64,000 bases of DNA, taken from assembly GCA_022706785.1 (NCBI GenBank), contig JAKJBW010000007.1, positions 25,599 to 89,598 of the forward strand, given 5' to 3'. How positions within the stretch are numbered: position 1 is the stretch's first letter; the number at the start of each line of letters is the position of its first letter. The stretch comes from Bacillota bacterium (lineage in GTDB: Bacteria; Bacillota; Clostridia; UBA1381; UMGS1253). Below the pieces are notes generated by a model. The model worked only from the letters and a program-made list of their open reading frames with translations. It was not told the origin of the DNA and did no database searches. A program made the position numbers and the translations under genes. Below are positions 6,515 through 37,497 of this stretch, one piece after another.

Positions 6515-7729
6515 ATGGAAAGCACTGCCGGCAAGGCCATCTATAACGGTTTTTTAGAGGTGGCAAAGGAAAAATGCGGCTATTTTGCCCAATGGACCTA
6601 TGATACGCCTATCGCCATCACGACGGCTACAAATCAAAAGCTCCACAAAATACAGAAGCTGCTCTACAAATGTATCCGTTATTTTGTGGAAAATTACGAA
6701 GCGTTCTATGAATTGATGCCGGTTTCGGACCAGGTCCGCGGCATCCTTTCACTGTTTCAGGAAAAGCCTTACAGAACGGGCACATACAGAACGGATTTTG
6801 TCGTCGGGGAGCAGAATGAAATTAAGCTGATTGAGATTACCTGCCGGTTTGCAATGAACGGTTTTTTTACCACCGGGTTTTTCCGCCTGCTTTCGGAAAG
6901 GTTTTTGCAGTATCACCCCGAGATCCGCAAAGTTGATGATTATACGCCGTATTTTGATTACATTGCAGGCTGTTACAAAGCATTCGACCGCATCTGCCTT
7001 TTGAAGGGCGTTGTGGAAAAGAATGAAGATAAGATTATGATACCAATATTTGAGGCGGCAAAATACCCTGTTTTTGTGCTGCGGCCGGATGAAATCTCCG
7101 CTGGCACCCACCTGTTTGAGAATTCATTGGTCATGTCGCAGCTCAGTCACGAAGAGATATGCTCGCTTCCCATGGACACTATACGGGCAATACGGGACGC
7201 CAATCTGATTAACGATTACAGAACGGTATTTCTGATCCACGATAAGCGGTTTTTGTCGGTCCTGTCAAAAGAATCGTTTTTGGACAAAGTGCTGACGGCC
7301 CGGGAAAAAGAGGAATTCCTGCAATACCTCGTCCCCACCTATCAAAAAGGGGAGAGGGAGGATTTATGGCAGGCCGCCAGGCACGAAAAGGAAAAATGGA
7401 TCATCAAGCCAAGCGTCTTGGGCAGAAGCATTGATATCTTCGCGGGCTGCGTGACCGCCGATAAGGATTGGGCAGCTTTATTTGAAAAAGAAAGAACGGA
7501 CATTGTTTTGCAGGAATATATCAGTCAGCGCCGTTTCCGGGGCCGGATCGGCGAACAAAGCTACAACGATTACGCCGTAGGGACCCTGCTGTTTTTTGAC
7601 GACCATTTTTTTGGCCCCGGCATGTTTCGCACCTCTTCCCATCCGGTGACAAACATTACCGACGACAGAAAGATGGCTTTTGTCGTGACCGACGACACCG
7701 AATGTTTTTCGCAGGACAATGTACTTTGA
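6515..7729 (+). CDS. ATP-grasp-like ligase (glutathione-synthetase-like fold), function unknown
   Basis: Start moved to ATG 6515 (MESTAGK) because the upstream extension has no SD. Motifs: YRTDFVVGEQNEIKLIEIT, WIIKPSVLGRSIDIFAG, IVLQEYISQ resemble the ATP-grasp K and QEY/E-N segments. Assigned from motifs only. Confidence 0.4.
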   Translation: MESTAGKAIYNGFLEVAKEKCGYFAQWTYDTPIAITTATNQKLHKIQKLLYKCIRYFVENYEAFYELMPVSDQVRGILSLFQEKPYRTGTYRTDFVVGEQNEIKLIEITCRFAMNGFFTTGFFRLLSERFLQYHPEIRKVDDYTPYFDYIAGCYKAFDRICLLKGVVEKNEDKIMIPIFEAAKYPVFVLRPDEISAGTHLFENSLVMSQLSHEEICSLPMDTIRAIRDANLINDYRTVFLIHDKRFLSVLSKESFLDKVLTAREKEEFLQYLVPTYQKGEREDLWQAARHEKEKWIIKPSVLGRSIDIFAGCVTADKDWAALFEKERTDIVLQEYISQRRFRGRIGEQSYNDYAVGTLLFFDDHFFGPGMFRTSSHPVTNITDDRKMAFVVTDDTECFSQDNVL

Positions 7730-7753
7730 ATTTTTGAAGGTGAACAGTTTATT

Positions 7754-8455
7754 ATGGGATGGAAGGAATTCTGGAACGAATTTCCGCTTAGGTTTGAAAA
7801 AGACAGCCTTTTCCACCAGGTTGGAAAGACATATGGCGGAAAGCCCATCAACGATTGGCAGTTTCGTATCCTGATGGGTGACATTATAGCCAAGCTGAAT
7901 ATTACGCAGGAGGACTATGTGCTGGATTTGTGCTGTGGGAACGGTCTTATCACGCACAGGATCGCGCCGTTCTGCAAAGGCGTTTCGGGGATCGACTTTT
8001 CCGTACCGCTTATCTGTACGGCAGAAGCATGTTGCCGAGCGGGTAACCTGAAATACCACTGTGCATCCGCCCTCCAGATTTCGCGGCAGCACCTGTTCAA
8101 AGAGGGTTCGCTTTTCCGCAGGGTTTATATGTATGAGGCGCTCCAGCACTTTGCTTATGAGCAGCTAGGGCCGCTTTTGCAGCGTATTCTCACCCTATCG
8201 GAGGATGATGTCACCATTCTTCTGGCCAGCATCCCCGACCGGACCAGGTTAACTTCCTTTTACAATACGCCCGAGCTTTTGTCCGATTACTATGCCAAAA
8301 CGGAAAAGGGCGAGCTGCTGCTCGGGACGTGGTGGGATCCGGATTATATCCGGCAGGTCTGCGCGGAAAAGGGGTTGCGCGCTGTAGTATGCCGGCAGCC
8401 CGCACAGCTGCATACAGCGTACTATCGTTTTGACGTATTGATTACAAGAAAATAG
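7754..8455 (+). CDS. Class I SAM-dependent methyltransferase
   Basis: 233 aa. VLDLCCGNGLIT (motif I) followed by GIDFS. Confidence 0.7.
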   Translation: MGWKEFWNEFPLRFEKDSLFHQVGKTYGGKPINDWQFRILMGDIIAKLNITQEDYVLDLCCGNGLITHRIAPFCKGVSGIDFSVPLICTAEACCRAGNLKYHCASALQISRQHLFKEGSLFRRVYMYEALQHFAYEQLGPLLQRILTLSEDDVTILLASIPDRTRLTSFYNTPELLSDYYAKTEKGELLLGTWWDPDYIRQVCAEKGLRAVVCRQPAQLHTAYYRFDVLITRK

Positions 8456-8472
8456 TGATTGGGGAAGTGATT

Positions 8473-9237
8473 ATGAAGCTCGGGCTGATGCAGCCTTACT
8501 TTTTTCCGTATATCGGATATTTTCAGCTGATACAGGCGGTCGACAGCTTTATCGTCTATGATGACGTTGCCTTTATCAAGCAGGGCTGGATTAACCGGAA
8601 CCGGCTTTTGCCGCTGCATGGGCAGCCAGTTTATTTCAATGTGCCGCTTAAGGGTGCGGGTTCCTTCCAAAAGATCCGTTCCATTGAAATTTTCGATGAC
8701 GGCAGATGGCGGCCAAGGCTCTTGAAGATGATCCAACATAACTATAAGTCAGCGTCATACTTTGAGGAGACCTTTCCCCTCATAAAGGATCTCATACTGA
8801 CAGAGGAGCAAAGTCTGTCTGGGTATAACCTTTGCATCATGCGGGGCATAGCGGGCCACCTGGATATCGGCACGGATATCCGCTACGAGCCCGACAAATA
8901 TCAGTGGCTGGAAAGCGCGCTTGCTGCCGAACCGTCCGCTTTAAAGCATAAATATGCTGAGGCGGGGTATGCTTCGGAGTCAAAAGTTATCCGTATCCTT
9001 GAAATCTGCAAGCACGAGGGCGCCGATACTTACGTCAATGCGATTGGCGGACAGGCGCTTTATGACAGGGAAATCTTTTGCCGAAGCGGCGTAGCGCTTT
9101 TATTTGTCAACACACTGCCGTATCAATATGACCAGCGGTCAGAGGCGTTTTATCCGCATCTGTCCATCATTGACGTTTTGATGAACTGCGGAAGGGAAAA
9201 TACCAAAAAAATGCTGTGCGGCTTTACGTTAATTTAG
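8473..9237 (+). CDS. WbqC-family protein (polysaccharide-locus protein of unknown function)
   Basis: Start at ATG 8473 (GGGGAAG SD). N-terminus MKLGLMQPYFFPYIGYFQLI is the WbqC-family signature as I recall it. Confidence 0.65.
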   Translation: MKLGLMQPYFFPYIGYFQLIQAVDSFIVYDDVAFIKQGWINRNRLLPLHGQPVYFNVPLKGAGSFQKIRSIEIFDDGRWRPRLLKMIQHNYKSASYFEETFPLIKDLILTEEQSLSGYNLCIMRGIAGHLDIGTDIRYEPDKYQWLESALAAEPSALKHKYAEAGYASESKVIRILEICKHEGADTYVNAIGGQALYDREIFCRSGVALLFVNTLPYQYDQRSEAFYPHLSIIDVLMNCGRENTKKMLCGFTLI

Positions 9238-24987: not shown

Positions 24988-25074
24988 GGAGAGGTGTCCG
25001 AGTGGTTTAAGGAGCTGGTCTTGAAAACCAGTGACTCGAAAGAGCCAAGAGTTCGAATCTCTTCCTCTCCGCCA
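24988..25074 (+). tRNA. tRNA-Ser (anticodon TGA)
   Basis: GGAGAGG / CCTCTCC acceptor, loop CT-TGA-AA, long variable arm, GTTCGAATC, encoded CCA. Confidence 0.9.
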
Positions 25075-25101: not shown

Positions 25102-25193
25102 GGAGAAGTACTCAAGTAGGTCGAAGAGGTGCCCCTGCTAAGGGTATAGGTCGTGAAAGCGGCGCGAGGGTTCGAATCCCTCCTTCTCCGCCA
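25102..25193 (+). tRNA. tRNA-Ser (anticodon GCT)
   Basis: GGAGAAG / CTTCTCC acceptor, loop CT-GCT-AA, long variable arm, GGTTCGAATCC, encoded CCA. Confidence 0.9.
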
Positions 25194-25498
25194 AAGAAAC
25201 TAACAGAATTTAGTACAAAAATAGCTGCTTAAAATAAGCGGCTATTTTTGTGTATTTCCATATATTTACAAGGGATTTGTGGGTTCGCATACGCTGCGTG
25301 TTACCGCTGGTCGGCGCGGTAAATTGATATAAAAATAAGGCGCGATACATATTCCGCTATTTTTATTTGAACCCCACAGGACATATTGCAATAAAGGAAA
25401 ATATTACCGTTAAAAAGCATAAGTTAGCGTTAAAATGTATGAACCCCACAAATCAGCCCCGCGCTTTGGCGGGGCTGGTTTTCATTTTCGGGCGGCTA

Positions 25499-26080
25499 TT
25501 ATTCGGCTACGAAGCCTCGCTCCGCCAGTGCGTCTATCAATTCTTGATTGCTCTCGCCTGTAAGCGTTCCGTTGCGGTCTATGAGGTAGTTTCCGATTGC
25601 GTAAACGTATGTCGGTGCGCCTTTATATACGGGTTTCTCGCCTATTATTTTACCTATTGCCGTAACTAATGCTTTGCGCTGGTCGCCGGTTACGTTGTAC
25701 GCTATTTCTACATTGCCGCTTTCGGCGAGCTGCTCTTGGTCTGCGTTTACCGGGGCAGCTATATTTACTATTACCGCCGGAAATGCTGGCTTTTCTTCTT
25801 CGCTTTCCGCCGCGGCTTTCGCCGCCGCCTTTTCCGCCCGTGTCATTTTGGGGCGTATGTCCGGGAAAACCTCCGGCAGTATGCCTTTTTCAAAAAATAG
25901 CTGAAAGCTGATTTTTCCGTCCTCGGGTACGTCGAATTTGAAGTCTGTAATTTCTAATTCCTTCAGCGCGTCCGGGATGTCAATGTTTTTGTACTGCTTT
26001 ACTTCATCGTTCCCTACCATAAACCTTACCGGAACCGCGTCCCTCAATTTTGCTGTGATTTTTCCTGCTTTCATAGTCAT
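25499..26080 (-). CDS. Hypothetical island protein (193 aa)
   Basis: Long ORF with an Ala/Glu-rich linker; hairpin terminator at 25457-25481 just downstream. No motif recognised. Confidence 0.5.
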   Translation of the reverse strand: MTMKAGKITAKLRDAVPVRFMVGNDEVKQYKNIDIPDALKELEITDFKFDVPEDGKISFQLFFEKGILPEVFPDIRPKMTRAEKAAAKAAAESEEEKPAFPAVIVNIAAPVNADQEQLAESGNVEIAYNVTGDQRKALVTAIGKIIGEKPVYKGAPTYVYAIGNYLIDRNGTLTGESNQELIDALAERGFVAE

Positions 26081-26572
26081 TGTTTTTTCCTACCTTTCAA
26101 AAATTTATTTTTTTGTTGACTTGCTTTGTGTGCCACAGCTTACTCTGGAAATGCTTATAAAGCAAGGCTTTTTATAATTTTCTTTGCATAAAATAAGACA
26201 AAAAAGCTGCTTACTTCTTGTATGAAGTCAACAGCTTTTCAATATTAAAAATATTTTTAATTTTCGCTTGCAATCCCACGGAAATTATTGTAACATCCCG
26301 ACAACGGGATTTTCTCGGAAAATAAAAAGCGTCATGGCAGGCGGGTATGCAGCGAACATAACCGCCCTGCGCGAAAGGTGAACAGACCACCTCTGCACAA
26401 CTTAAAAAGCACCATGACTTTAATATTATACATCCGCTGAGAAATATTTTCAAGTCATTTATACAAATGTGTGCGAGGGTCGGAGGTCGTTTATGCGACC
26501 TTACCTTTGTACGCATTTTTGTATATACGGGAATTTCCCGACATATTAAAATTTGTCGGGAGGTAGTAAAAA

Positions 26573-27250
26573 GTGAACATTTTTGAAAATGCGGGCGCGT
26601 TTCTCGGTGAAATTCGCCTGGAGAGCTTGGGAAATGCTCTGACGGAATTTTACGGGGCGGTGGCTGATGTTAAAGGGAGGCTCGGTCATAGCGGGCGGTT
26701 ATTGGATGAATACTTAGAACTTGTATTCGGGGCTATCCATGAGGTTAGCACGGAAACATCCGCAACGGACGGGTATTCTTCCTGTATGCCGGAGTTAAAA
26801 AGAATGTGCGGCTCGATTGTGCGGGGCGAGAGTGGGTACGAAAACCACCCTCTATACGAGCAAACAAAGCAGTATATTGATTTGCACCCGCTTCCGCACC
26901 TCGAACGCTTGCACAAAATCGAAGTGTACGCCGGGGTTTTAATGGGGGATTACAGTAAATATGCAATAGAAAAATATTACAACAAATACAACGGTAGGCT
27001 GGCGGACAGCGGGTATATTTCCGAATTGAATCCGTTATATAACGATATTTGCGGCATACTTGGGTCGGAGGACGCTATGGAGCGGTTAAATATGATAATT
27101 AAACGAAGTTTTTTAATCACCCCTGTTATGCACTCTTTTTTACAGGCTGTAATTGATAATATGCTTGAAATGCTGTCGTTTAAGGTGCCGGAAACCGCGA
27201 AACATGTCTTTGAATTAGTGCCGTGTATGGAGGGACGTGATGAAAACTGA
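26573..27250 (+). CDS. Hypothetical island protein (225 aa)
   Basis: GTG start with GGGAGG SD. The 14-nt overlap with the next ORF suggests translational coupling. Confidence 0.5.
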   Translation: MNIFENAGAFLGEIRLESLGNALTEFYGAVADVKGRLGHSGRLLDEYLELVFGAIHEVSTETSATDGYSSCMPELKRMCGSIVRGESGYENHPLYEQTKQYIDLHPLPHLERLHKIEVYAGVLMGDYSKYAIEKYYNKYNGRLADSGYISELNPLYNDICGILGSEDAMERLNMIIKRSFLITPVMHSFLQAVIDNMLEMLSFKVPETAKHVFELVPCMEGRDEN

Positions 27251-27641
27251 ATATTTGTCAATGAAACATATTGAGATACTTTTCAAATGTTACTATTTGA
27301 AAAGCTACACGAGGGTCGCCGACGCCGAAAATATTATGCCGGGTAAAGTAAAGCAAATAAAAGAAAACGCCCTTCGCATTATCCGGCTGTCATATAGTCA
27401 ATCTCATATGAAGGGGTTACGGTTTGACGGTGAAAATATCTTAAATTATATGGCGGAACGCGCGGGCATGGAAAAAACGGCTCTATTTTCGATTTTTGAA
27501 GGATATATATCCGAGGGGTTGTCATCAGACAATAAGAAATATTGGGCGAGAATTAAGAGTAAAGAGCCTATTCCCTCGCCCGCTGAACTATTAGATTTTA
27601 TATATGATAAATACGAGATTGAGATTGAAGGTTTTATTTGA
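27237..27641 (+). CDS. Small protein with a sigma-70 region-4-like HTH
   Basis: 134 aa. YTRVADAENIMPGKVKQIKENALRIIR resembles a region-4 HTH. Confidence 0.4.
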   Translation: MMKTEYLSMKHIEILFKCYYLKSYTRVADAENIMPGKVKQIKENALRIIRLSYSQSHMKGLRFDGENILNYMAERAGMEKTALFSIFEGYISEGLSSDNKKYWARIKSKEPIPSPAELLDFIYDKYEIEIEGFI

Positions 27642-27812
27642 CGGGATAATATGGAGGTATATATTGCGTATGCGCGTTAAAACGCCTCTATTTTGGACGA
27701 ACATCATCCGCATATGGAGGAATATGGAAACTGACTATACAATGCCTTAAACGGCAAATATGAGCCTCATACGACGAATGTGGAAAAGCGTCTGTGCTGG
27801 GTGGTGATAGCT

Positions 27813-27981
27813 TTTGACGGAATTACGGAATTGACGGGTTTCTGTATTTCTTTACATATAGACCAGTAGAGGAACAATAGAAAAACCATAAGCAAAAAAA
27901 CTTTGTTTTTTTGCTTATTTGCTTATATAAAAAAGATAAATATATGTACTCGTCAAATCCGTCAAGCCGTCAAATTCGGCG
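27813..27981. repeat. Iteron-like repeat unit 1 (TTGACGG motifs in inverted arrangement)
   Basis: Left arm is tttgacggaattacggaattgacggg...tttacatatagaccagt. Right arm is tatataaaaaagataaatatatgtactcgtcaaatccgtcaagccgtcaaattcggcg. Confidence 0.85.
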
Positions 27982-28180
27982 GGATAAAAAACGAGTGTGA
28001 ATTTACAATAAGATGATTGTTTAAGGGTTGCTTATTTGCTAAGAAGTGTGCTAAAATGGTATTATGTGGAAACGTGATTAATGCTGGATTGTTCTTTGTC
28101 CTGAAAAAATTTATAGTTCGTCGTCAGAAAATCATGAGGAACACGGTAAACACCGTATGTTGGTTACTGCTATAAAAGTA

Positions 28181-28327
28181 TTTGACGGAATTACGGAATT
28201 GACAGGTTTCCGTATTTCTTTACATATAGACCAGTGCGGGGATAGGTAAGGGGTTTATGTGTATACGACTATATAAAAAAGATAAATATATGTACTCGTC
28301 AATTCCGTCAAGCCGTCAAATCCGGCG
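28181..28327. repeat. Iteron-like repeat unit 2
   Basis: The 55-nt left arm matches unit 1 at 53/55. The right arm is near-identical. The central roughly 35-55 nt differs. Confidence 0.85.
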
Positions 28328-28456
28328 AAACGAAAAACAAGGCGCAAAGCTACGGAAAATCAGGGTTACAAGCATATAGATAACGGAAAGGCGAAGCCTA
28401 CAGGGAAATAAGGCGGCGGGGACAAAAACAAATTTTATCTTATGGAGGTTTTGTAT

Positions 28457-28861
28457 ATGCACATAGCATTGGCTTATCTTGACAAAAGAACAGCGACGGT
28501 ATCCGCGATAAAAGATTACACGAGTATGGAGTTTATAATTAACAACACGCCGGATGAGGCGAAGCTGGCACCACAGATTGGCGAGATGGACATCCGCAAG
28601 GAATGCTACCGGCGTGCTTTGGAGTACATGGAGTGGTTTCTTCCTGCATGGGATACGCTCACCGATGACGAGCGGTTTGTCCTTTCGGAGTTTTACCGCG
28701 AGGACGGGGCACAGCGCGGGGACGCTATTGATAACATCCGCGACCGCTTCTATATTGAGAGTACATCCGCCTATAAAAAGAAAAACCGCGCTTTGGCAAA
28801 ATTAACAACTTTGCTATACGGAAAAATAAAAGTGTCCAAAAGTGGAGGGTACTTTTTATAA
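28457..28861 (+). CDS. Phage-type sigma-like transcriptional activator (RinA/ArpU-style, region-4 HTH)
   Basis: Start moved to ATG 28457 because GGAGG at 28444-28448 is its SD. LTDDERFVLSEFY ... ESTSAYKKKNRALAKLTTLLYG. Confidence 0.5.
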   Translation: MHIALAYLDKRTATVSAIKDYTSMEFIINNTPDEAKLAPQIGEMDIRKECYRRALEYMEWFLPAWDTLTDDERFVLSEFYREDGAQRGDAIDNIRDRFYIESTSAYKKKNRALAKLTTLLYGKIKVSKSGGYFL

Positions 28862-29621
28862 AAAGTATGATATAATGTTACTGTGCGAAAAATGAAAAGT
28901 GTCCAAAATCGCGGACGATTTTTCGCATTGGATGTGATACACTGTTATTATCGAAAAGTGCGAAGATGAGATTTTTACGAGATGAACATAATACGTTCTC
29001 GTGTTATACTTGTATCATCAAAAAATACACAAGCAAAAAAGTCTTTGAAGCAGGCGCCTGCCAAAGGCTTTTTTTGTTTGCTTTATATAAATAAAATTTT
29101 TTGCTGGGAAAGGAGGGATAAAATCTCTACAAACCGCTCGACGTTCTACCGGCGCCCCCCTTCGCGTGAAAAATCGCGTTTTCAAATAGGGTATAGGGTG
29201 CGAAAAATGCGCTCATAACTTGTCGTTGCGCGGCGTTTGTGGTGTTTTTCGCGAAATATCCCTCCCCCCTGTGGATAAATCAAATAACAATCAAATGAAG
29301 TGTCCACGCGGAGGAGCTTTAGGCTTGGCAGAGGAAAAAACTTGTTCTGGTGTGTTTGTAAAAAGGTGTAATCTTACGGCTATGCCTTTTGAAAGATGGG
29401 GGTTTTATGGGGGTATTTTTGCTCTAAGGTGTGTTATAATGTTATCATCTGAAAATATCAAAACGGGAGCCTTCGGCGCGGAGGCTCCTTTTTCGTGCTT
29501 ATTTTACGAGGGGGGGACAATATGCAAGAGTTAAAGATATATGCCTATGGAGCAGGACAGGTGTTTGGATGAAATGAAATCAAATCATATAAAAAATAAA
29601 TTTTAAGGAGGATTTATCACT

Positions 29622-30875
29622 ATGAAAAACAAAAAATTACTTGCTATGATGGCAAAACGAAACGAACTGAAAACACAGGCACAGAGACTGCTTGACGCGG
29701 CACAAAAAGTGGGACGCCCGCTCACTAACGCAGAGCGCGAAACGCTGGAGGGGCTGAAAGTTAAAATCGAGCAATGGGACGACACTATCAAGGAAATGGT
29801 AACTCTTTGGGAGGATGGCACACCGAGCGGCGCGCCAAATGGTGGTAACTCCCGTAAATTCACCAGCTTTGGCGAACAACTCCACGCGATATATAACGCC
29901 GCCAAGCCGGAGCGTTCCGCAATGGACGCGCGGTTGTTTAACGGGGCGAGCGGCGCGGGCGAAAGTGTTCCTTCGGACGGTGGGTTTTTAGTGCAGAGCG
30001 ATTTTGCGGCAGGACTTTTAAAGCTAACGTATGAAACAGGAATACTCGCGGCGAGATGTAAAAAAATACCGATTTCAAGCGGCGCGAATGGAGTAAAAAT
30101 CAACGCGCTGGACGACGACTCCCGCGACAACGGGGCAAGGTGGGGCGGCATACAAGCCTTTTGGACTGGCGAGGCGGACGAGTTGACTGCCTCAAAGCCG
30201 AAATTCCGTCGAATGGAATTAACGCTGAAAAAGCTAGCAGGCTTATGCTACACCACCGATGAACTTTTAAGCGACACGATGGCGCTTGAAAGTGTAATCG
30301 CGCAGGGCTTTGCCGAGGAATTTGGGTTCAAAATGGACGACGTTATACTGAACGGCACGGGGACGAACCAGCCGCTCGGCATTCTCAAAAGTAACGGTCT
30401 GGTAACGGTGGCGAAAGAAACCGACCAAGCGGACAAAATCACAGTTGATAATATAACAAAAATGTGGGCGCGATGCTGGGGACGGAGCCGTAACAATTCG
30501 GCGTGGTACATAAACCAAGAATTAGAACCGTACCTTTATGCGCTAAAAATCGGCGACGCGCCCGTGTATATTCCCGCAGGCGGGCTTTCCGCGTCGCCGT
30601 ACGGCTCAATATTTGGTCGCCCAGTAATTCCGATTGAGCAATGCCCGGGGGTGGGCGAGAAGGGCGATATTATCCTTGCCGACTTGTCGCAATATCTACT
30701 TGTTGACAAGGGCGGAATTAACGCTGCGTCGTCAATTCACGTTAGGTTTTTGTATGACGAAAACGTGTTTAGATTTACCTATCGCGTGGATGGTCAGCCG
30801 ATTTGGAACGCACCTATCACTCCGTACAAGGGCGCGGGTACATTGTCGCCGTTTGTAACGCTGGCGGCAAGGTAG
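29622..30875 (+). CDS. Phage major capsid protein, HK97 family
   Basis: 417 aa. AAGGAGG SD. N-terminal coiled-coil delta-like region (LTNAERETLEGLKVKIEQW). Typical HK97-family body (GGFLVQSDFA, LAGLCYTTDELL, TNQPLGIL). Confidence 0.8.
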   Translation: MKNKKLLAMMAKRNELKTQAQRLLDAAQKVGRPLTNAERETLEGLKVKIEQWDDTIKEMVTLWEDGTPSGAPNGGNSRKFTSFGEQLHAIYNAAKPERSAMDARLFNGASGAGESVPSDGGFLVQSDFAAGLLKLTYETGILAARCKKIPISSGANGVKINALDDDSRDNGARWGGIQAFWTGEADELTASKPKFRRMELTLKKLAGLCYTTDELLSDTMALESVIAQGFAEEFGFKMDDVILNGTGTNQPLGILKSNGLVTVAKETDQADKITVDNITKMWARCWGRSRNNSAWYINQELEPYLYALKIGDAPVYIPAGGLSASPYGSIFGRPVIPIEQCPGVGEKGDIILADLSQYLLVDKGGINAASSIHVRFLYDENVFRFTYRVDGQPIWNAPITPYKGAGTLSPFVTLAAR

Positions 30876-31604: not shown

Positions 31605-31676
31605 TGCTGAAAAACCTTGATTTCCACAGTGTTTGAGAGTAAGCTGTCAACACTAAGGAAGGGGGTGTTTAGCAAT

Positions 31677-32990
31677 ATGGAACGAATAATAACGCAAGTA
31701 ACGCCGCAGGCAATACACCTTGCGGCACCACAATCAAAGCGTGTAGCCGCCTATGCGAGAGTATCGAGCGGCAAGGACGCAATGCTGCACAGCCTGTCGG
31801 CACAAGTAAGCCATTACAGCGGATATATCCAAAGGCAACGCGGCTGGCAGTATGTGGGCGTATATGTGGATGAAGCCGTTACCGGGACAAAGGATTCACG
31901 GGCGGGATTCAAAGAAATGATCGGGGATTGCCGTGCCGGGAAGGTTGATATGATTATAACCAAATCAATCACACGCTTTGCGCGAAATACGGTTACTCTT
32001 TTGAATACCGTCCGCGAATTAAAGCTGCTGGGAATTGACATATTTTTTGAAAAAGAAAATATCCACTCAATGAGCGGGGATGGTGAGATTATGCTTACCA
32101 TCCTCGCTTCATACGCGCAGGAAGAAAGCCGGAGCGTTTCGGAAAATTGCAAATGGCGCATAAGAAAACGGTTTGAAAAAGGCGAGCTTGTGAACTTGCG
32201 GTTTTTGTATGGTTACGATATTAAAAAGAGCGTAATCGAAATTGACCCGGAGCAGGCGGAAATCGTCCGCGTGATTTTTGACGACTATATCGGCGGCATG
32301 GGCGGAGTGTTAATTGCACAAAAGCTAAATGAGGCGGGTATTCCGTCATTTTTCGGCGCACGCTGGAGCGCATCCCGTATTCTTGACATTATCAAAAACG
32401 AGAAGTACATCGGCGATTCGCTGGGACAAAAATCCTTTGTTGCCGACCACTTGACAAAGAAAACCGTCCGTAATATTGGGCAATTACCGCAATATTACGC
32501 CGAGAATGTACTCCCTGCCATTATCGACGCGGCGACCTTCGAGGCGGCGCAGGACGTTATGGCGGGGCGGCGGGAGCATTTCAACGCCAAAGACACCAGC
32601 GCGAACCGTTACCCGCTCACGGGGAAAATCCTGTGCGGGAATTGCGGAAAAAAATTCAAGCGCAAAAAAGGCGTCGGGTGTTTCTATTGGCAATGTTCCA
32701 CCTTTTTACAGGATGGCAAGGCGTACTGCCCCGCCAAGCAAATACCCGAAGGGACGCTGTACGCGGCAACTGCCGAGGCATTAGGACTGGCGGAATTTGA
32801 CGCGGCTGTATTTGCGGAGCATATCGCGGAAATACGGGTGCCGGAGCATAACAAGCTGGTATTTGTATTTTATGACGGACGGACGTTGGAGCGCGAATGG
32901 CAAGACCGCTCCCGGCGCGAAAGCTGGACGGAGAAAATGCGGCAAGCTGCGCGGGAACACGCGCTCAGAGGACAAAGAAAATTAGATTAG
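31677..32990 (+). CDS. Large serine recombinase 1
   Basis: Start at ATG 31677 (AAGGAAGGGGG SD). VAAYARVSSGKD catalytic-Ser motif, ITKSITRFARNT, recombinase domain, Cys4 zinc ribbon CGNCGKKF...CSTF. Confidence 0.85.
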   Translation: MERIITQVTPQAIHLAAPQSKRVAAYARVSSGKDAMLHSLSAQVSHYSGYIQRQRGWQYVGVYVDEAVTGTKDSRAGFKEMIGDCRAGKVDMIITKSITRFARNTVTLLNTVRELKLLGIDIFFEKENIHSMSGDGEIMLTILASYAQEESRSVSENCKWRIRKRFEKGELVNLRFLYGYDIKKSVIEIDPEQAEIVRVIFDDYIGGMGGVLIAQKLNEAGIPSFFGARWSASRILDIIKNEKYIGDSLGQKSFVADHLTKKTVRNIGQLPQYYAENVLPAIIDAATFEAAQDVMAGRREHFNAKDTSANRYPLTGKILCGNCGKKFKRKKGVGCFYWQCSTFLQDGKAYCPAKQIPEGTLYAATAEALGLAEFDAAVFAEHIAEIRVPEHNKLVFVFYDGRTLEREWQDRSRRESWTEKMRQAAREHALRGQRKLD

Positions 32991-33003
32991 GGGGTTTTGA
33001 CTT

Positions 33004-34614
33004 ATGCCAGCAAAAACGGCAACAATAGAAAAACGGGTACGGTATATTCCCGCCGTGGATAATCTCGCGCGGGTGCCGTTCAGTACGGAGTACGTCAAAA
33101 GACGCACGGCTGCTTATGCCCGCGTATCTACCGACGAGGAAGAACAGCTAAACAGCTATGAGGCGCAAGTTCAGTATTATACTGAATATATACAGTCAAA
33201 CGACGAATGGGAATTTGCGGGTATGTACGCGGATAAAGACCGCTCCGGCACCACAACTAAACGCCGGGATGATTTTAACCGTATGATAAAGGACGCGCAG
33301 GAGGGCAAAATTGATTTTATTATTACAAAGTCCGTTTCCCGGTTTGCCCGGAATACGGTTGACACTTTAACGACGGTGCGGCAATTAAAGGAAAAAGGCG
33401 TCGAGGTGTATTTTGAAAAAGAGAATATTTACACGCTGGATAGTAAGGGCGAGCTTCTTATAACTATTATGTCGAGCCTCGCCCAAGAGGAAAGCCGCTC
33501 CATATCCGAAAATGTGACGTGGGGGCAGCGTAAGCGCATGGCGGACGGAAAAGTGAGCCTGCCTTACAAACAATTCCTCGGATATGAAAAGGGCAAGGAC
33601 GGTTTGCCGAAAATTGTGGACGCCGAAGCGAAAATAGTGCGGCGCATTTACCGCCTGTTTCTATACGGCAAAGCCCCTGCTACAATCGCCGCCTTACTAA
33701 CGGTGGACGGCATACCTACTCCGTCCGGCAAGCAGGAATGGCGGGCGCAGACGGTTATTAGTATTCTTACAAACGAGAAATACAAGGGCGACGCGCTATT
33801 GCAGAAAAGCTACACGGTGGATTTCCTTACCAAGAAAAAGAAGGTAAACGAGGGCGAGGTTCCGCAATACTACGTCGAACAAAGCCATCCCGCTATTATC
33901 GAGCGGGAAATATTTGACCTCGTACAACAAGAATGGAAACAGCGCAAAGCGTCCGGCAAACAGTCAAGCTCGGTTCATCCATTTTCGGGTAGAATATTCT
34001 GCGGCGACTGCGGCGACGGGTACGGCTCTAAAATATGGCACAGTAACAGCAAATACCGCCGCGAGGTGTGGTCTTGCAACGGCAAGCACTATGGCGGCAA
34101 AAAGTGCCAAACACCACGCCTAACCAACGAAGAAATACAAACGGCGTTCGTAAACGCCTTTAACGGCTTGATAGACCACAAAACCGAGATAATGAAAGCA
34201 TACGGGGAAATATGCGGCATATTGACCGACACCGCCGCTATTGACGCCGAACGCGAGGAATTGCAGCGGGAATGCGACGTTGTAATGGAATTACTCCGAA
34301 AATGTATTGAAGAAAACGCGCATACCTCGCTTAATCAGGACGAATACCGCCAGCGGTACGAGGGTTATACGGCGCGGTTTGAAACCGCCCGGAACAAGCT
34401 GGTGGAGCTTGACGCCGAACGGCTGGCGCGTATCGCCAAACGCGCAAATATCACGCTGTTTTTGGAAACGCTGGAACAGCGCGACGGGCTTATATCCGCC
34501 TTTGACGAGGAACTATGGTACATTACCGTGGAAAATGTAAAGGTGTACGACGGTAAGCGGCTGATATTTACCTTCAAGAACGGCGTAACGGTGGAAGTAC
34601 CCTCTACGAAGTAA
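33004..34614 (+). CDS. Large serine recombinase 2
   Basis: 536 aa. AAYARVSTDEEEQ, ITKSVSRFARNT, zinc ribbon CGDCGDGY...CNGKH, C-terminal coiled coil. Confidence 0.9.
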   Translation: MPAKTATIEKRVRYIPAVDNLARVPFSTEYVKRRTAAYARVSTDEEEQLNSYEAQVQYYTEYIQSNDEWEFAGMYADKDRSGTTTKRRDDFNRMIKDAQEGKIDFIITKSVSRFARNTVDTLTTVRQLKEKGVEVYFEKENIYTLDSKGELLITIMSSLAQEESRSISENVTWGQRKRMADGKVSLPYKQFLGYEKGKDGLPKIVDAEAKIVRRIYRLFLYGKAPATIAALLTVDGIPTPSGKQEWRAQTVISILTNEKYKGDALLQKSYTVDFLTKKKKVNEGEVPQYYVEQSHPAIIEREIFDLVQQEWKQRKASGKQSSSVHPFSGRIFCGDCGDGYGSKIWHSNSKYRREVWSCNGKHYGGKKCQTPRLTNEEIQTAFVNAFNGLIDHKTEIMKAYGEICGILTDTAAIDAEREELQRECDVVMELLRKCIEENAHTSLNQDEYRQRYEGYTARFETARNKLVELDAERLARIAKRANITLFLETLEQRDGLISAFDEELWYITVENVKVYDGKRLIFTFKNGVTVEVPSTK

Positions 34615-34667: not shown

Positions 34668-34705
34668 GGGGCTTAAGTGTTTTAAGGAAATTATTACAAA
34701 AAACA

Positions 34706-34734
34706 TTGAAAATTGCATAAATATGTGTTATAAT
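34706..34734 (+). promoter_or_regulatory. Strong sigma-A promoter heading the RT cassette
   Basis: TTGAAA, 17 nt, TGtTATAAT (extended -10). Confidence 0.55.
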
Positions 34735-34948
34735 AATTTTACCAGTGTAGAAATAGTCAGATTCACTCCCATTTGGCTCACATTTATTGTGGGCGGCGTT
34801 GTGCCTCAAGGCATGAACGCATTTTTCTCCGGCGCACGCTCTCTCATGTTGTTTTAACACTTGCTAACACTAACGTGTTATGCAGTAGTGATGACAGTGT
34901 GATGATGTGTATGTGTATAAGATAAATCAATTTTATCGGGAGTTAGAT

Positions 34949-35256
34949 TGTGCTGGTGTTATCGGTATACGGCTATTATCTCTTTGTTATTAGAGGGTGC
35001 GGGAGACCCTCGACCGTTTTGGTTAGGGGCCAATAATAACAAGGAGGTGAAAACATCGTGAAGAAAGCGGATAGGCCTAATGTTACCATTAATATTTTTA
35101 ATGGTAACAAGATTTCTCTTGATGGCAAGTCATTGCTGCTAATTATAGTAGTAATTGTATGCCTAACACTGGTTGTATCGTTACGTAGTCCCGAACTGCA
35201 AGCTAATGTTGTCCGCTGGTTAATTAGCTTAGCAGAGAACTACTAACACCAGCACA
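34949..35256 (+). ncRNA. Candidate retron msr-msd-like structured RNA closed by a1/a2-like inverted repeats
   Basis: 13-bp perfect IR: tgtgctggtgtta at 34949-34961 and taacaccagcaca at 35244-35256. Several internal hairpins. Lies directly upstream of the RT. Boundaries are inferred. Confidence 0.4.
35058..35246 (+). CDS. 62-aa predicted single-pass membrane peptide; may instead be non-coding
   Basis: AAGGAGGTGA SD 7 nt before GTG. Hydrophobic core LLLIIVVIVCLTLVV. However, it lies wholly inside the a1/a2 bracket and contains a perfect 12-bp hairpin. Confidence 0.4.
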   Translation: MKKADRPNVTINIFNGNKISLDGKSLLLIIVVIVCLTLVVSLRSPELQANVVRWLISLAENY

Positions 35257-35280
35257 CTAAAATAATGAGGTGTATGCCTT

Positions 35281-36240
35281 TTGATATATAATAATTGTAA
35301 GCTATATCAGTTACAATCAAAAAGAGTATTGAAATATCTGTTGGGGATTACGGATACAAAAATGTTTAATCAAGCATACGTGGCGTCTTTAATAAAGCCT
35401 TATATTGACTCCAACGGAAAGCCGCGTATTATTGAACCACCTTCTTATGGGTTAAAACAAATACAGGCACGAATCAAAAAACTTCTTTATGCGGTTGTGG
35501 TACCAGAAAATGTGTTTTCCGGTATTAAAGGCAGATCATATGCCCAAAACGCAGAAATTCACAAAGGAAATAACTATACATATAAAATAGATTTAACAGC
35601 TTTCTTTCCGAGTATTTCACGAGAAAAAGTTTATGCCTTTTTCAAAAATGAAATGCAAACCGCTCCAGACATAGCGGAGTTTTTGACGAATGTTACAACG
35701 GTAAACATAGATTTATCTGACGTTCAAAACATAGATGATATAAATAAATTTCTTGCAGATAAGAAAATTAAAACTCGCAACCACCTCATATCGGGTTCAC
35801 CGACAAGTCAAATATTATCATATATGGTCAATCATAAGATGTTTAATGAACTTCAAGATTTGGCAAGTAAGAATCAAGCTGTTATGACAATATATGTGGA
35901 TGATGTGGTGTTCTCTTCTAAAAACAAAATATCCAGTGACTTTAAATATGCCATTAACGCAATTGTTAAAAAACATGAGTATAAAATATCAAAGCATAAG
36001 GTTAAAGGGTATTCCAAAAATTATCCTAAACTGATAACAGGGGCAATTATTGATAAAAATGGAAATATGAGAGTCAAAAACTCATTAAGATATAAAATTA
36101 TTATGGCATTTAACGAATCTTTAAAAAATCCTGATGATCTAGAAATTAGAAAACGACTAAGAGGACTTGTTACAGCAGCAAGGCAGGTTGAGCCAAATGC
36201 ATATCCAGAGATACGAAAATATGCATTTAAAAAATTATAA
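35281..36240 (+). CDS. Retron-type reverse transcriptase
   Basis: 319 aa. TTG start with GAGGTG SD 8 nt upstream. PRIIEPPSYGLKQIQ, GRSYAQNAEIH (NAxxH), IDLTAFFPSI, ISGSPTSQILS, IYVDDVVFS (YxDD), LITGAII (xTG). Confidence 0.8.
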   Translation: MIYNNCKLYQLQSKRVLKYLLGITDTKMFNQAYVASLIKPYIDSNGKPRIIEPPSYGLKQIQARIKKLLYAVVVPENVFSGIKGRSYAQNAEIHKGNNYTYKIDLTAFFPSISREKVYAFFKNEMQTAPDIAEFLTNVTTVNIDLSDVQNIDDINKFLADKKIKTRNHLISGSPTSQILSYMVNHKMFNELQDLASKNQAVMTIYVDDVVFSSKNKISSDFKYAINAIVKKHEYKISKHKVKGYSKNYPKLITGAIIDKNGNMRVKNSLRYKIIMAFNESLKNPDDLEIRKRLRGLVTAARQVEPNAYPEIRKYAFKKL

Positions 36241-36313
36241 ATACAGCAGTTATTTTTTAATATGTAACGCTCTTTGTTGTATGCAGTAATTTTTTTTTGG
36301 GGGGGGTGATGCA

Positions 36314-36895
36314 ATGGAAAAAGGGGATAATCGCGCAAGGTTCAATGAAGTAAGGAAAATGCTTTTTGCAGAGAATATTGATACCAAAAAACCTTGTATA
36401 TTTCTGTCACATAGGAGTTTAGATAAAGAAATGGTAAGAACAATAGCGGATTATATTGCCGAGCAAGGTATAGATTATTATTTAGACGAGGAAGATCCTG
36501 CCCTACAAGAAGCCGATAAAAATGAGGATGACCAAGCAACTGTTGATTGTATAAAAGAAGGCATTGGATTATCTTCGCACATATTATGTGTTTTATCTTA
36601 TAATACAGTCAGTTCCTGGTGGGTTCCTTTTGAAGTGGGATATGCAGATTGTTTAAAAAAGAAAGTGGCATCTTTAAAAATAAAAGATTTATCTGATAAA
36701 GAGATACCTGCATTTCTGAGAATCTATGAATGCCTTGCCGGAATTAAAGAGTTTAACAAATACCTTGTAGGAATATCAGATCCATACGGTGGACTTTTCT
36801 CAAAGTACAATAAGCAACAGAATGGAACGACTTCTCCTTCTGTTGAGATAGCATACACTCAAAATCACCCACTATATGATACGCTTGATGAATAG
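36314..36895 (+). CDS. TIR-like (TIR/NDT-superfamily) effector protein
   Basis: 193 aa. CIFLSHRSLDKEMVRTIADYIAEQGIDYYLDE and ILCVLSYNTVSSWWVPFEVGYA match the TIR_2-style pattern (FxSH..D ... S.W...E). Assigned from motifs only. Confidence 0.6.
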   Translation: MEKGDNRARFNEVRKMLFAENIDTKKPCIFLSHRSLDKEMVRTIADYIAEQGIDYYLDEEDPALQEADKNEDDQATVDCIKEGIGLSSHILCVLSYNTVSSWWVPFEVGYADCLKKKVASLKIKDLSDKEIPAFLRIYECLAGIKEFNKYLVGISDPYGGLFSKYNKQQNGTTSPSVEIAYTQNHPLYDTLDE

Positions 36896-37379: not shown

Positions 37380-37497
37380 GGGCATATAGGAAGTATAAGC
37401 ATTTTTCTATATTCCCGTTAAAAAGTGTACCCCCTAACACAACGAAATGCACCCCATAAAAGAAAAATACACCCCATAATAAAAACTTTTCGCGTTA

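Follow-up and report, generated by a model that had tools for sequence, protein, structure and literature searches.

The window analysed here is a 64,000-nt stretch of contig JAKJBW010000007.1 from a Clostridia-type Bacillota bacterium, in which an 800-nt non-coding gap (27642-28441) holds two repeat units built from short iterons, unit 1 at 27813-27975 and unit 2 at 28181-28321. The gap separates a gene encoding a 134-amino-acid (aa) protein from the gene encoding a 139-aa helix-turn-helix (HTH) protein (28442-28861), and the only open reading frames (ORFs) inside it are short and unconserved. It belongs to a phage-derived island of about 12 kb, which extends from two tRNA-Ser genes (24988-25074 and 25102-25193) to about 37.5 kb. 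A first-pass annotation, made from the sequence alone, had reported the two units and placed them in a 0.8-kb gap upstream of a sigma-like activator gene; reading of the sequence from 27300 to 28900, combined with a repeat search, showed that the units are real and that the gap is as described. In each unit three tandem TTGACGG-type iterons stand on the left and three inverted ones on the right; between them, a variable centre is flanked by two inner arms, of which the left one is conserved and A+T-rich:

27813-27838, plus strand: left iteron block of unit 1, with TTGACGG (27814-27820), TTACGG (27823-27828) and TTGACGG (27831-27837) in tandem at 8-9-nt spacing
27839-27867, plus strand: inner left arm of unit 1, T-rich (GTTTCTGTATTTCTTTACATATAGACCAGT), kept in the homologous phage and island units
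27868-27923, no strand: centre of unit 1, A+T-rich, with a perfect 14-bp palindrome (27888-27918) that is terminator-like on both strands
27924-27950, plus strand: inner right arm of unit 1 (TATATAAAAAAGATAAATATATGTACT)
27951-27975, minus strand: right iteron block of unit 1, inverted, with CGTCAA (27951-27956), CCGTCAA (27959-27965) and CCGTCAA (27967-27973)
28181-28206, plus strand: left iteron block of unit 2, with TTGACGG (28182-28188), TTACGG (28191-28196) and TTGACAG (28199-28205)
28207-28296, no strand: inner arms of unit 2 and its 34-nt centre (28236-28269), the centre being like those of phage units L001 and L086
28297-28321, minus strand: right iteron block of unit 2, inverted, with CGTCAA (28297-28302), CCGTCAA (28305-28311) and CCGTCAA (28313-28319)

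The left iterons read TTGACGGAA, TTACGGAA and TTGACGGGT, the third being TTGACAGG in unit 2. TTGACGG copies had been recognized in the left arm, but the count of two was too low, as three tandem units of 8-9 nt are present. The other details of the earlier description held: a 53/55 match between the left arms (27813-27867 and 28181-28235, repeat family D2), three inverse copies in each right arm (CGTCAA, CCGTCAA and CCGTCAA), the pairing of tacatata with tatatgta, and centres that differ, being 57 nt long in unit 1 and 34 nt in unit 2 and impossible to align with each other. The hairpin seen in the centre of unit 1 is a perfect one of 14 bp (27888-27901 with 27905-27918, repeat I9). The right arms (27924-27975 and 28270-28321) match fully over 38 nt from their start, and the one base at which they differ falls in the iteron block; beyond them the likeness fades across about 20 nt (family D1, 84% over 88 nt). 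The stretch between the iteron blocks has an A+T content of 77% (unit 1) or 68% (unit 2), compared with an island value of 56%, and the A+T-rich centre of unit 1 is a candidate melting region. The window has three copies of the 23-nt left iteron block where 0.00 would be expected, and 16 of TTGACGG where 7.6 +/- 3 would be, 8 of the 16 lying inside the 515-bp feature; an origin of the repeats through chance is excluded. Additional TTGACGG copies lie inside the 134-aa gene (27424-27430) and at its very end (27638-27644). The latter (TATTTGACGGGAT) resembles the start of unit 2 and, with TATATT 16 nt downstream, forms the top promoter-like match of the region.

Homologous units in phages and their initiator

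Eighty loci around relatives of the 139-aa HTH protein were fetched, and the prophage layout was read from them (loci are cited by their L numbers). The genes recur in the order DNA polymerase A, DUF7768, a primase-helicase of 750-830 aa, a non-coding unit, VRR-NUC, sometimes SNF2, HTH, HNH and terS. The non-coding unit starts 0-50 nt past the primase stop codon and carries tandem iterons on its left and the same iterons inverted on its right, with 64-110 bp between them. Close relatives of the window units came from a pattern search of viral and metagenome contigs and from one of the 80 loci, so that the search for the motif in other elements, which the first-pass annotation had proposed, found homologous units in related phages. 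They lie 0-50 nt 3' of the primase-helicase stop codon in L086, L001/L085, L088, L028, L070/L073 and L044. L086, an IMG/VR contig that encodes TerL, portal and the rest of the virion, has a left iteron block (TTTGACGGAATTACGGAATTGACGG) and a right arm identical to those of the window, and L001/L085 and L088 are similar. A hidden Markov model (HMM) built from seven close units detected a single unit in each phage locus, a pair in the window and a truncated copy in L081-L084, with E-values of about 1e-36 to 1e-44 for L086, L001/L085 and L088, which are members of the seed, and 4e-06 for L028; L070/L073 and L044 were not reported by this search. In the alignment of the seven units the iteron and inner-arm columns are invariant and the centres run free.

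The phage initiator combines an N-terminal RepB_primase domain, D5_N, DUF5906 (a superfamily 3, SF3, helicase) and a C-terminal Pox_D5/RFX winged helix. Over the helicase and the C-terminal domain it matches PDB 7OLA, the PriRep5 protein of SaPI5, with an E-value of 8.8e-20. Its C-terminal tail reads ...GKRRTW(K/R)G... in the phages with TTGAC(G/A)G iterons, and ...SRRKTWRG... in L044, whose iterons are GAACGG. Experiments on the origins of the Staphylococcus aureus pathogenicity islands (SaPIs) showed 6-12 short iterons placed directly after rep; two or more of them flank an AT-rich centre on either side, with opposite orientation on the two sides, and the C-terminal winged helix of Rep or PriRep binds them (PMC9371898). 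Both window units have three iterons on each side of an A+T-rich region, in opposed orientation; the placement directly downstream of rep is not found in the window, and is found in the related phages and in 24 more distant loci. The proposal of a replication origin with an iteron array, one of several made in the first-pass annotation, is therefore well supported by the position of homologous units 3' of a PriRep-type gene in phages and by the SaPI-like architecture (PMC9371898).

Two observations concern individual relatives. L087 (3473-3632) and L089 (4014-4173) share a complete unit that stands behind only the last ~20 primase codons (...DKLGKRRTWKGVKL) and is followed by a different activator (DUF1492 / sigma-70 region 4), HNH and terS; it provides another, independent example of an origin that lacks its initiator. 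At 9156-9935 of L028, a contig of a metagenome-assembled genome, a phage methylase ORF runs into a biotin-lipoyl / oxaloacetate decarboxylase gene, which implies either that the element ends inside the methylase gene or that the contig is chimeric.

Iteron variation among distant prophages

The 24 more distant prophage loci share the layout and a conserved centre (GTATAAACCCCCTTTAGGGCAGTTTTTTCAG...ACTTATAGAGGA), while their iterons differ between elements (GGTGCAGGTC, GGTGGAGGTC, GGTGTAGGTC, GTGACGGTC and AGACACCTC), all four copies within a unit changing in concert. In a sliding-window comparison, the iteron distance followed the C-terminal end of the primase most closely, its last ~100 alignment columns giving Spearman values of 0.64-0.74 and partial correlations of 0.42-0.54 after removal of the whole-protein distance. 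Correlations were weaker for the rest of the primase (0.42-0.62, the partials being mostly negative over the N-terminal two-thirds), for the HTH protein (0.46) and for the unit centre (0.54). The pairing of tails with iterons in the window's own group, given above, shows this trend qualitatively.

Sister islands and selection

Three sets of loci resemble the window island. L096/L097 carry a 184-aa gene on the minus strand, genes for 79-, 229- and 134-aa proteins, one unit of the unit-1 type with the same centre hairpin, a cos-like element (see below), the capsid gene and two recombinases, followed by SIR2 and HerA. L090 has the 134-aa gene, one unit, a truncated HTH gene, HNH, the cos-like element, the capsid gene and a recombinase. 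L081-L084 consist of a tRNA, a 183-aa gene on the minus strand, a degenerate unit, the HTH gene and the capsid gene; the 38-nt stretch at 27924-27961 of the window, which reaches the first right iteron, is identical in them.

In the sister islands L090 and L096/L097, which lack a primase, iterons and arms keep 78-100% identity against 35-44% for the adjoining non-coding DNA, at a synonymous divergence (dS) of 0.8-1.4. The inner left arm of unit 1 is 93% identical to that of L096 (flanking non-coding DNA, 43%) and its right iteron block 92%, and the right iteron block of unit 2 is identical to that of L090 at 25/25 positions (flanks, 35-38%). The ratio of non-synonymous to synonymous divergence (dN/dS) between variants, with dS up to 1.4, is 0.10 for the capsid gene, 0.11 for the 134-aa gene, 0.22 for the 193-aa gene and 0.25 for the HTH gene (against L081), and spans 0.10-0.25 over five island genes. 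These values indicate that the island genes are under purifying selection. The island is not simple debris, since its core is common to sister islands from independent samples, and the cos-like element and the late-activator gene have been retained too.

Orphan phage-type origins as the preferred reading

The window units are homologous to a phage element, with which they share their architecture; that element lies directly behind the gene of a PriRep-type initiator, and its iterons co-vary with the C-terminus of this protein. We consider it fairly probable, by sequence comparison and by analogy with the SaPIs, that both units are origins of the PriRep/SaPI type which have been orphaned and would be fired in trans by the initiator of a helper phage. 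As the island has no primase-helicase gene, it probably borrows such an initiator; no remnants of a primase gene were detected upstream of the units by tblastn or tblastx. The opposed iteron sets would be binding sites for the C-terminal winged helix of the phage primase-SF3-helicase, which, once bound, would melt the A+T-rich stretch between the sets and load itself. A related helper phage whose PriRep tail (...GKRRTWKG...) reads TTGACGG iterons would most likely bind the units in trans and replicate the excised island, and the units may titrate the helper initiator as a side effect. Most parsimoniously, the island would thus be a helper-dependent element with defence cargo, which the helper terminase would package from the cos-like site. 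Origin activity and its use in trans would be the predicted part of this scheme. The presence of two units probably results from recombination between an island of the L096 type, contributing unit 1, and a segment of the L090/L088 type, contributing unit 2 and the HTH gene; a simple tandem duplication is unlikely because centres and spacers differ.

Several points weigh against this reading. No PriRep homologue was found by tblastn in the 64-kb window, so the helper is hypothetical, and no discrete contig of the island turned up in the viral collection. L081-L084 have lost all left and two of the three right iterons with their genes intact, which implies that the iterons are dispensable for the persistence of that variant. 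The assignment as origin rests, for the whole phage group, on homology and on the SaPI analogy. Finally, the co-variation statistics ignore shared ancestry and, for want of a phylogeny correction, are taken as supportive only.

Alternative explanations

The first alternative is that the island is not mobilized and acts in interference, its orphan origins and cos-like site serving mainly to soak up the initiator and terminase of an infecting phage and so protecting the cell, much as cloned phage origins do in lactic acid bacteria. The iterons are the same as in phages, there are two copies of the unit, the same slot holds defence cargo in two islands (a retron-type reverse transcriptase and a TIR protein in the window, SIR2 and HerA in L096), and no packaging genes were found in the island, all of which would suit a decoy. 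It leaves unexplained, however, the two recombinases, a capsid gene with a dN/dS of 0.10 and the late-activator gene, and we regard it as unlikely. It is compatible with orphan origins used in trans, because replication in trans would titrate the initiator anyway.

Decidedly unlikely, in our view, is that the island is the stump of a decaying prophage and the units leftover origin DNA with no present role. Decay would account for an HTH gene that is internally deleted in the window, N-terminally truncated in L090 and absent from L096, for an HNH gene that is present or only a remnant, for the loss of iterons in L081 and for the lack of an initiator gene in the window. It fits poorly with the dN/dS values of the five island genes, with iteron blocks conserved far beyond the flanking non-coding DNA, and with a core layout that recurs in independent samples with swapped cargo.

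The iterons might instead be read by a protein of the island itself, the 134-aa or 225-aa protein, acting as a small initiator that recruits the host helicase or as a regulator. The 134-aa protein is the main rival candidate for the island, because its gene sits at the place of the initiator and is missing from the iteron-less variant: in the window, L090 and L096 it immediately precedes the unit, at the position held by the primase-helicase gene in phages (the two proteins are unrelated), and L081, without the 134-aa and 225-aa genes, is also without iterons. The family, highly conserved with a mean column identity of 72%, nevertheless turns up where no such unit is near (at a prophage end, in C. 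innocuum-like genomes and in Agathobaculum), which weakens the 134-aa protein as a putative iteron binder. A search for the island in viral contigs found it in none with the single 134-aa sequence, and with the family alignment gave only two prophage-end contexts, in which the unit is absent. The structural model of the protein is confident (pLDDT 92) and all-helical, with no winged helix and no significant structural match. In addition, the iterons are those of the phage PriRep group and show no new specificity, and no cluster of DnaA boxes accompanies them. We therefore hold a dedicated island-encoded binder to be highly unlikely.

The 139-aa HTH protein was rejected as the iteron binder, since its C-terminal, DNA-reading HTH region is invariant across elements with unrelated iterons; the element at 28900-28953 (see below) is a better candidate target. 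The earlier idea of a binding array for the HTH proteins of the island is thus disfavoured for the 139-aa protein by this invariance and for the 134-aa protein by its occurrence without the unit.

Folded as single-stranded DNA, the units are more stable than shuffled sequences (z = -6.0 for unit 1, -3.1 to -3.4 for unit 2), but inverted iterons give a good fold automatically, so these scores are not independent evidence for a hairpin function. When seven close homologues are aligned, compensatory change is missing from all 22 predicted arm pairs; variation is mostly one-sided and pair-breaking (six one-sided breaks), two variants giving a G-U wobble. TTGACG resembles a -35 box, but no promoter using the TTGACG boxes inside the units passed the promoter scan, which counted fewer sites than expected from shuffles, the candidate -10 is not conserved among homologues (TACATA, CACATT, TACACG, TACGTG), and the distant iterons, of the GGTGCAGGTC kind, are unlike a -35 box. 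Tandem copies within one arm also co-vary, which a hairpin would not need, no Rfam 15 covariance model matched 27600-28450 at E <= 1, and neither a relaxase nor a rolling-circle Rep was found in the island; on these grounds a structure-based element (long hairpin or cruciform acting as a single-strand origin, single-stranded-DNA promoter or structured RNA) or convergent sigma-70 promoters for short RNAs have only the faintest probability. The pairing data and the lack of a relaxase or rolling-circle Rep speak against a single-strand origin or single-stranded-DNA promoter hairpin, and the promoter data against a conserved sigma-70 promoter pair with 16-18-nt spacing, so that the convergent promoters with small RNAs of the first-pass annotation are not supported.

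Other kinds of origin or array were also considered. A partition array, likewise suggested earlier, is not supported, as the island lacks ParA and ParB; in the related phages a ParB_N domain occurs fused to methylases, far from the unit. A DnaA-dependent origin was rejected, as only one near-box (27779) and no cluster of DnaA boxes was found near the units. A plasmid-type iteron origin, with direct iterons of 17-22 bp, a rep gene and DnaA boxes, was set aside as well: the iterons here are 7-9 nt long and form two opposed sets, and no plasmid-type rep gene was found in the island. A blastn search of 27700-28450 against phage and plasmid collections gave no match.

The island around the units

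On its left the island is bordered by the chromosomal genes phoH, ybeY, dgkA, era and recO and a gene for a solute-binding protein. Beyond the tRNA-Ser genes come a 193-aa gene on the minus strand, the 225-aa and 134-aa genes, the two units, the 139-aa HTH gene, an HK97-type capsid gene, a gene for a small HTH/zinc protein, two large serine recombinase genes, genes for a retron-type reverse transcriptase and a TIR protein, and a glyoxalase gene. The main features besides the units are:

27237-27641, plus strand: gene for the 134-aa all-helical protein, directly upstream of the units, in an operon with the 225-aa ORF (26573-27250)
28442-28861, plus strand: gene for the 139-aa HTH protein, late-activator-like, probably starting at Met-6 (28457)
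28900-28953, plus strand: conserved promoter-like element just past the HTH gene, with an inverted GTCC..GGAC / GTCCAA..TTGGAC motif and an extended -10 (TGTTATTAT)
29105-29200, plus strand: cos-like conserved element of ~100 nt, kept in all mini-islands and located between HNH and terS in complete phages
29622-30875, plus strand: HK97-type major capsid gene, the island's one structural gene (dN/dS 0.10)
31617-34614, plus strand: two large serine recombinase genes (31617-32990 and 33004-34614)

The relatives of the 139-aa HTH protein, proteins of 150 aa, form a family found widely in Bacillota, and all related phages encode a member downstream of the unit. The window copy lacks ~30 residues present in all other members, between ...NNTPD and EAKLA..., and has an 11-residue C-terminal extension. 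The element past its gene has equivalents in L003 (6475-6536) and L001 (6463-6520), which are 77-89% identical while the HTH proteins are only ~50% identical, with the consensus TGTCCAAAATCGCGGACGATTTT..TTGGA(C/T)GTG.TACACTG.TATTATC. Its sequence suggests an activator-dependent late promoter, at which the HTH protein would probably act, and a portion of it recurs within the 3' end of the HTH gene (28811-28841).

The cos-like element was also found in L092 (218-333), L028 (~7720-7800), L073 (~8470-8560), L090 (~1620-1710) and L096 (~8985-9075), with the consensus GGGAGGGGGGA.AAAATCTC...CCGCCGCCCCCCTTCGCGTGAAAAATCGCG.TTTCAAA..GGGTATAG. Its location between HNH and terS, the usual place of cos, makes it a candidate cos or terminase recognition site. 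Past it lie a perfect DnaA-box 9-mer (29270-29278) and AATCAAA repeats. Capsid proteins 73% identical to that of the island are encoded by complete myovirus-type prophages with HNH, terS, TerL, portal and protease.

The slot after the recombinases (35281-36895) holds the retron-type reverse transcriptase, for which RT_VI is the top PADLOC model (E 3e-72), and then a separate TIR/ThsB-like protein; the same slot of L096 (14386-16405) holds SIR2_2 and a HerA-like ATPase. The pairing of an RT_VI-like reverse transcriptase with a TIR partner may be unusual, and the non-coding stretch at 34700-35280, with a strong promoter-like TTGCAT-N17-TATAAT at 34713-34741, may be the site of the retron RNA.

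Similar short motifs, ATATT(A/C)CCGTTAAAAAG and a repeated (a/c)accccaya, occur at both presumed ends of the island (25380-25450 and 37400-37480), and are possible recombinase or att-flanking sites; the limits of the island are approximate. Its left end directly follows tRNA-Ser(GCT), and L081 likewise lies beside the 3' end of a tRNA. The C-terminal ~70 residues of the 193-aa protein (25499-26080, minus strand) are homologous to the N-terminal part of phage proteins encoded past the methylase (the start of ORF 7514-8440 of L086 and of 3528-4193 of L092), a domain that the island keeps inverted. Upstream of the 225-aa/134-aa pair, a non-coding stretch of ~280 nt (26285-26572) is conserved in very different genomic contexts (L098 7035-7312, L099 7035-7306, L096 7035-7330); RNAalifold predicted 40 pairs in it, 7 of them compensatory, from four sequences only, and it had no Rfam match. 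It may be an undescribed structured RNA or leader, and the 101-aa ORF on the minus strand at 26211-26516 is probably spurious.

We tentatively propose, at somewhat less than even odds, that the window island represents a so far undescribed group of minimal satellites of phages of Clostridia-type Bacillota, which would have neither an initiator nor a terminase of its own and would depend on mimicry of the helper origin, present in one or two copies, and on the cos-like site. With a similar degree of reserve, the equipment of this group would further comprise two serine recombinases, a late activator, a major capsid gene of its own and a slot in which anti-phage cargo can be exchanged. If so, a duplicated origin would help the satellite to win the competition with the helper for the helper's initiator.

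Comparison with known systems

The C-terminal DNA-binding domain of the alpha primase-helicase of satellite phage P4 reads short direct and inverted iterons, and the P4 ori and crr are two separate iteron clusters on one small element, which act together although they are kilobases apart. The likeness to the window island is one of layout, by description only, and P4, unlike the island, encodes its own alpha protein. In phage-encoded resistance (Per) in Lactococcus and Streptococcus thermophilus, cloned phage origins titrate phage replication factors in lactic acid bacteria. As in the window, an origin without an initiator is present in the host cell and matches the specificity of an infecting phage; Per, however, is a laboratory construct on multicopy plasmids, whereas the units are chromosomal copies in a mobile-looking island.

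PICMI and cf-PICI elements resemble the island in being small, phage-derived and inserted at a conserved chromosomal site, with their own recombinase, few genes, defence cargo and dependence on a helper for virion parts. The primase of PICMI is required for its replication (PMC10803314). PICMI, phage-inducible chromosomal islands (PICIs), PLE and P4 all encode their own replication initiator, whereas none was found for the window island in the 64 kb; unlike minimal or capsid-forming satellites, it also retains nothing of the head module but the major capsid gene. Since the well-studied satellites (P4, SaPI/PICI, PLE and PICMI) bring their own initiator, an island with just the helper origin, in two copies, plus a cos-like site and one capsid gene would be a leaner form of phage parasitism. 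The units would then predict which phages, those with a PriRep tail of the ...GKRRTWKG... type, are able to mobilize this defence-carrying island or be blocked by it.

The closest parallel is with the SaPIs, which belong to the PICIs. Their origins, like the units, have short iterons in two opposed sets around an AT-rich centre and, like the units of the related phages, lie immediately downstream of the initiator ORF; PriRep5 of SaPI5 is, like the phage initiator, a primase-SF3-helicase fusion with a C-terminal winged helix, and in SaPI Rep and PriRep, too, iteron specificity diverges together with the C-terminus of the initiator. The systems differ in that the hosts here are Clostridia-type Bacillota, the recombinases are large serine recombinases, the iterons measure 7-9 nt instead of 5-6 nt, and the present case is built on sequence. 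The PriRep/iteron type of origin would thus extend to a large group of gut and environmental Bacillota phages, and, because 30 or more natural variants are available, the code that links iterons to initiators should be readable from sequence. In the window, unlike in the SaPIs, the origin stands without an initiator gene and in two copies; while this kind of origin is itself known, what appears to be new is a SaPI/PriRep-type iteron origin orphaned and doubled in a minimal phage-derived island.

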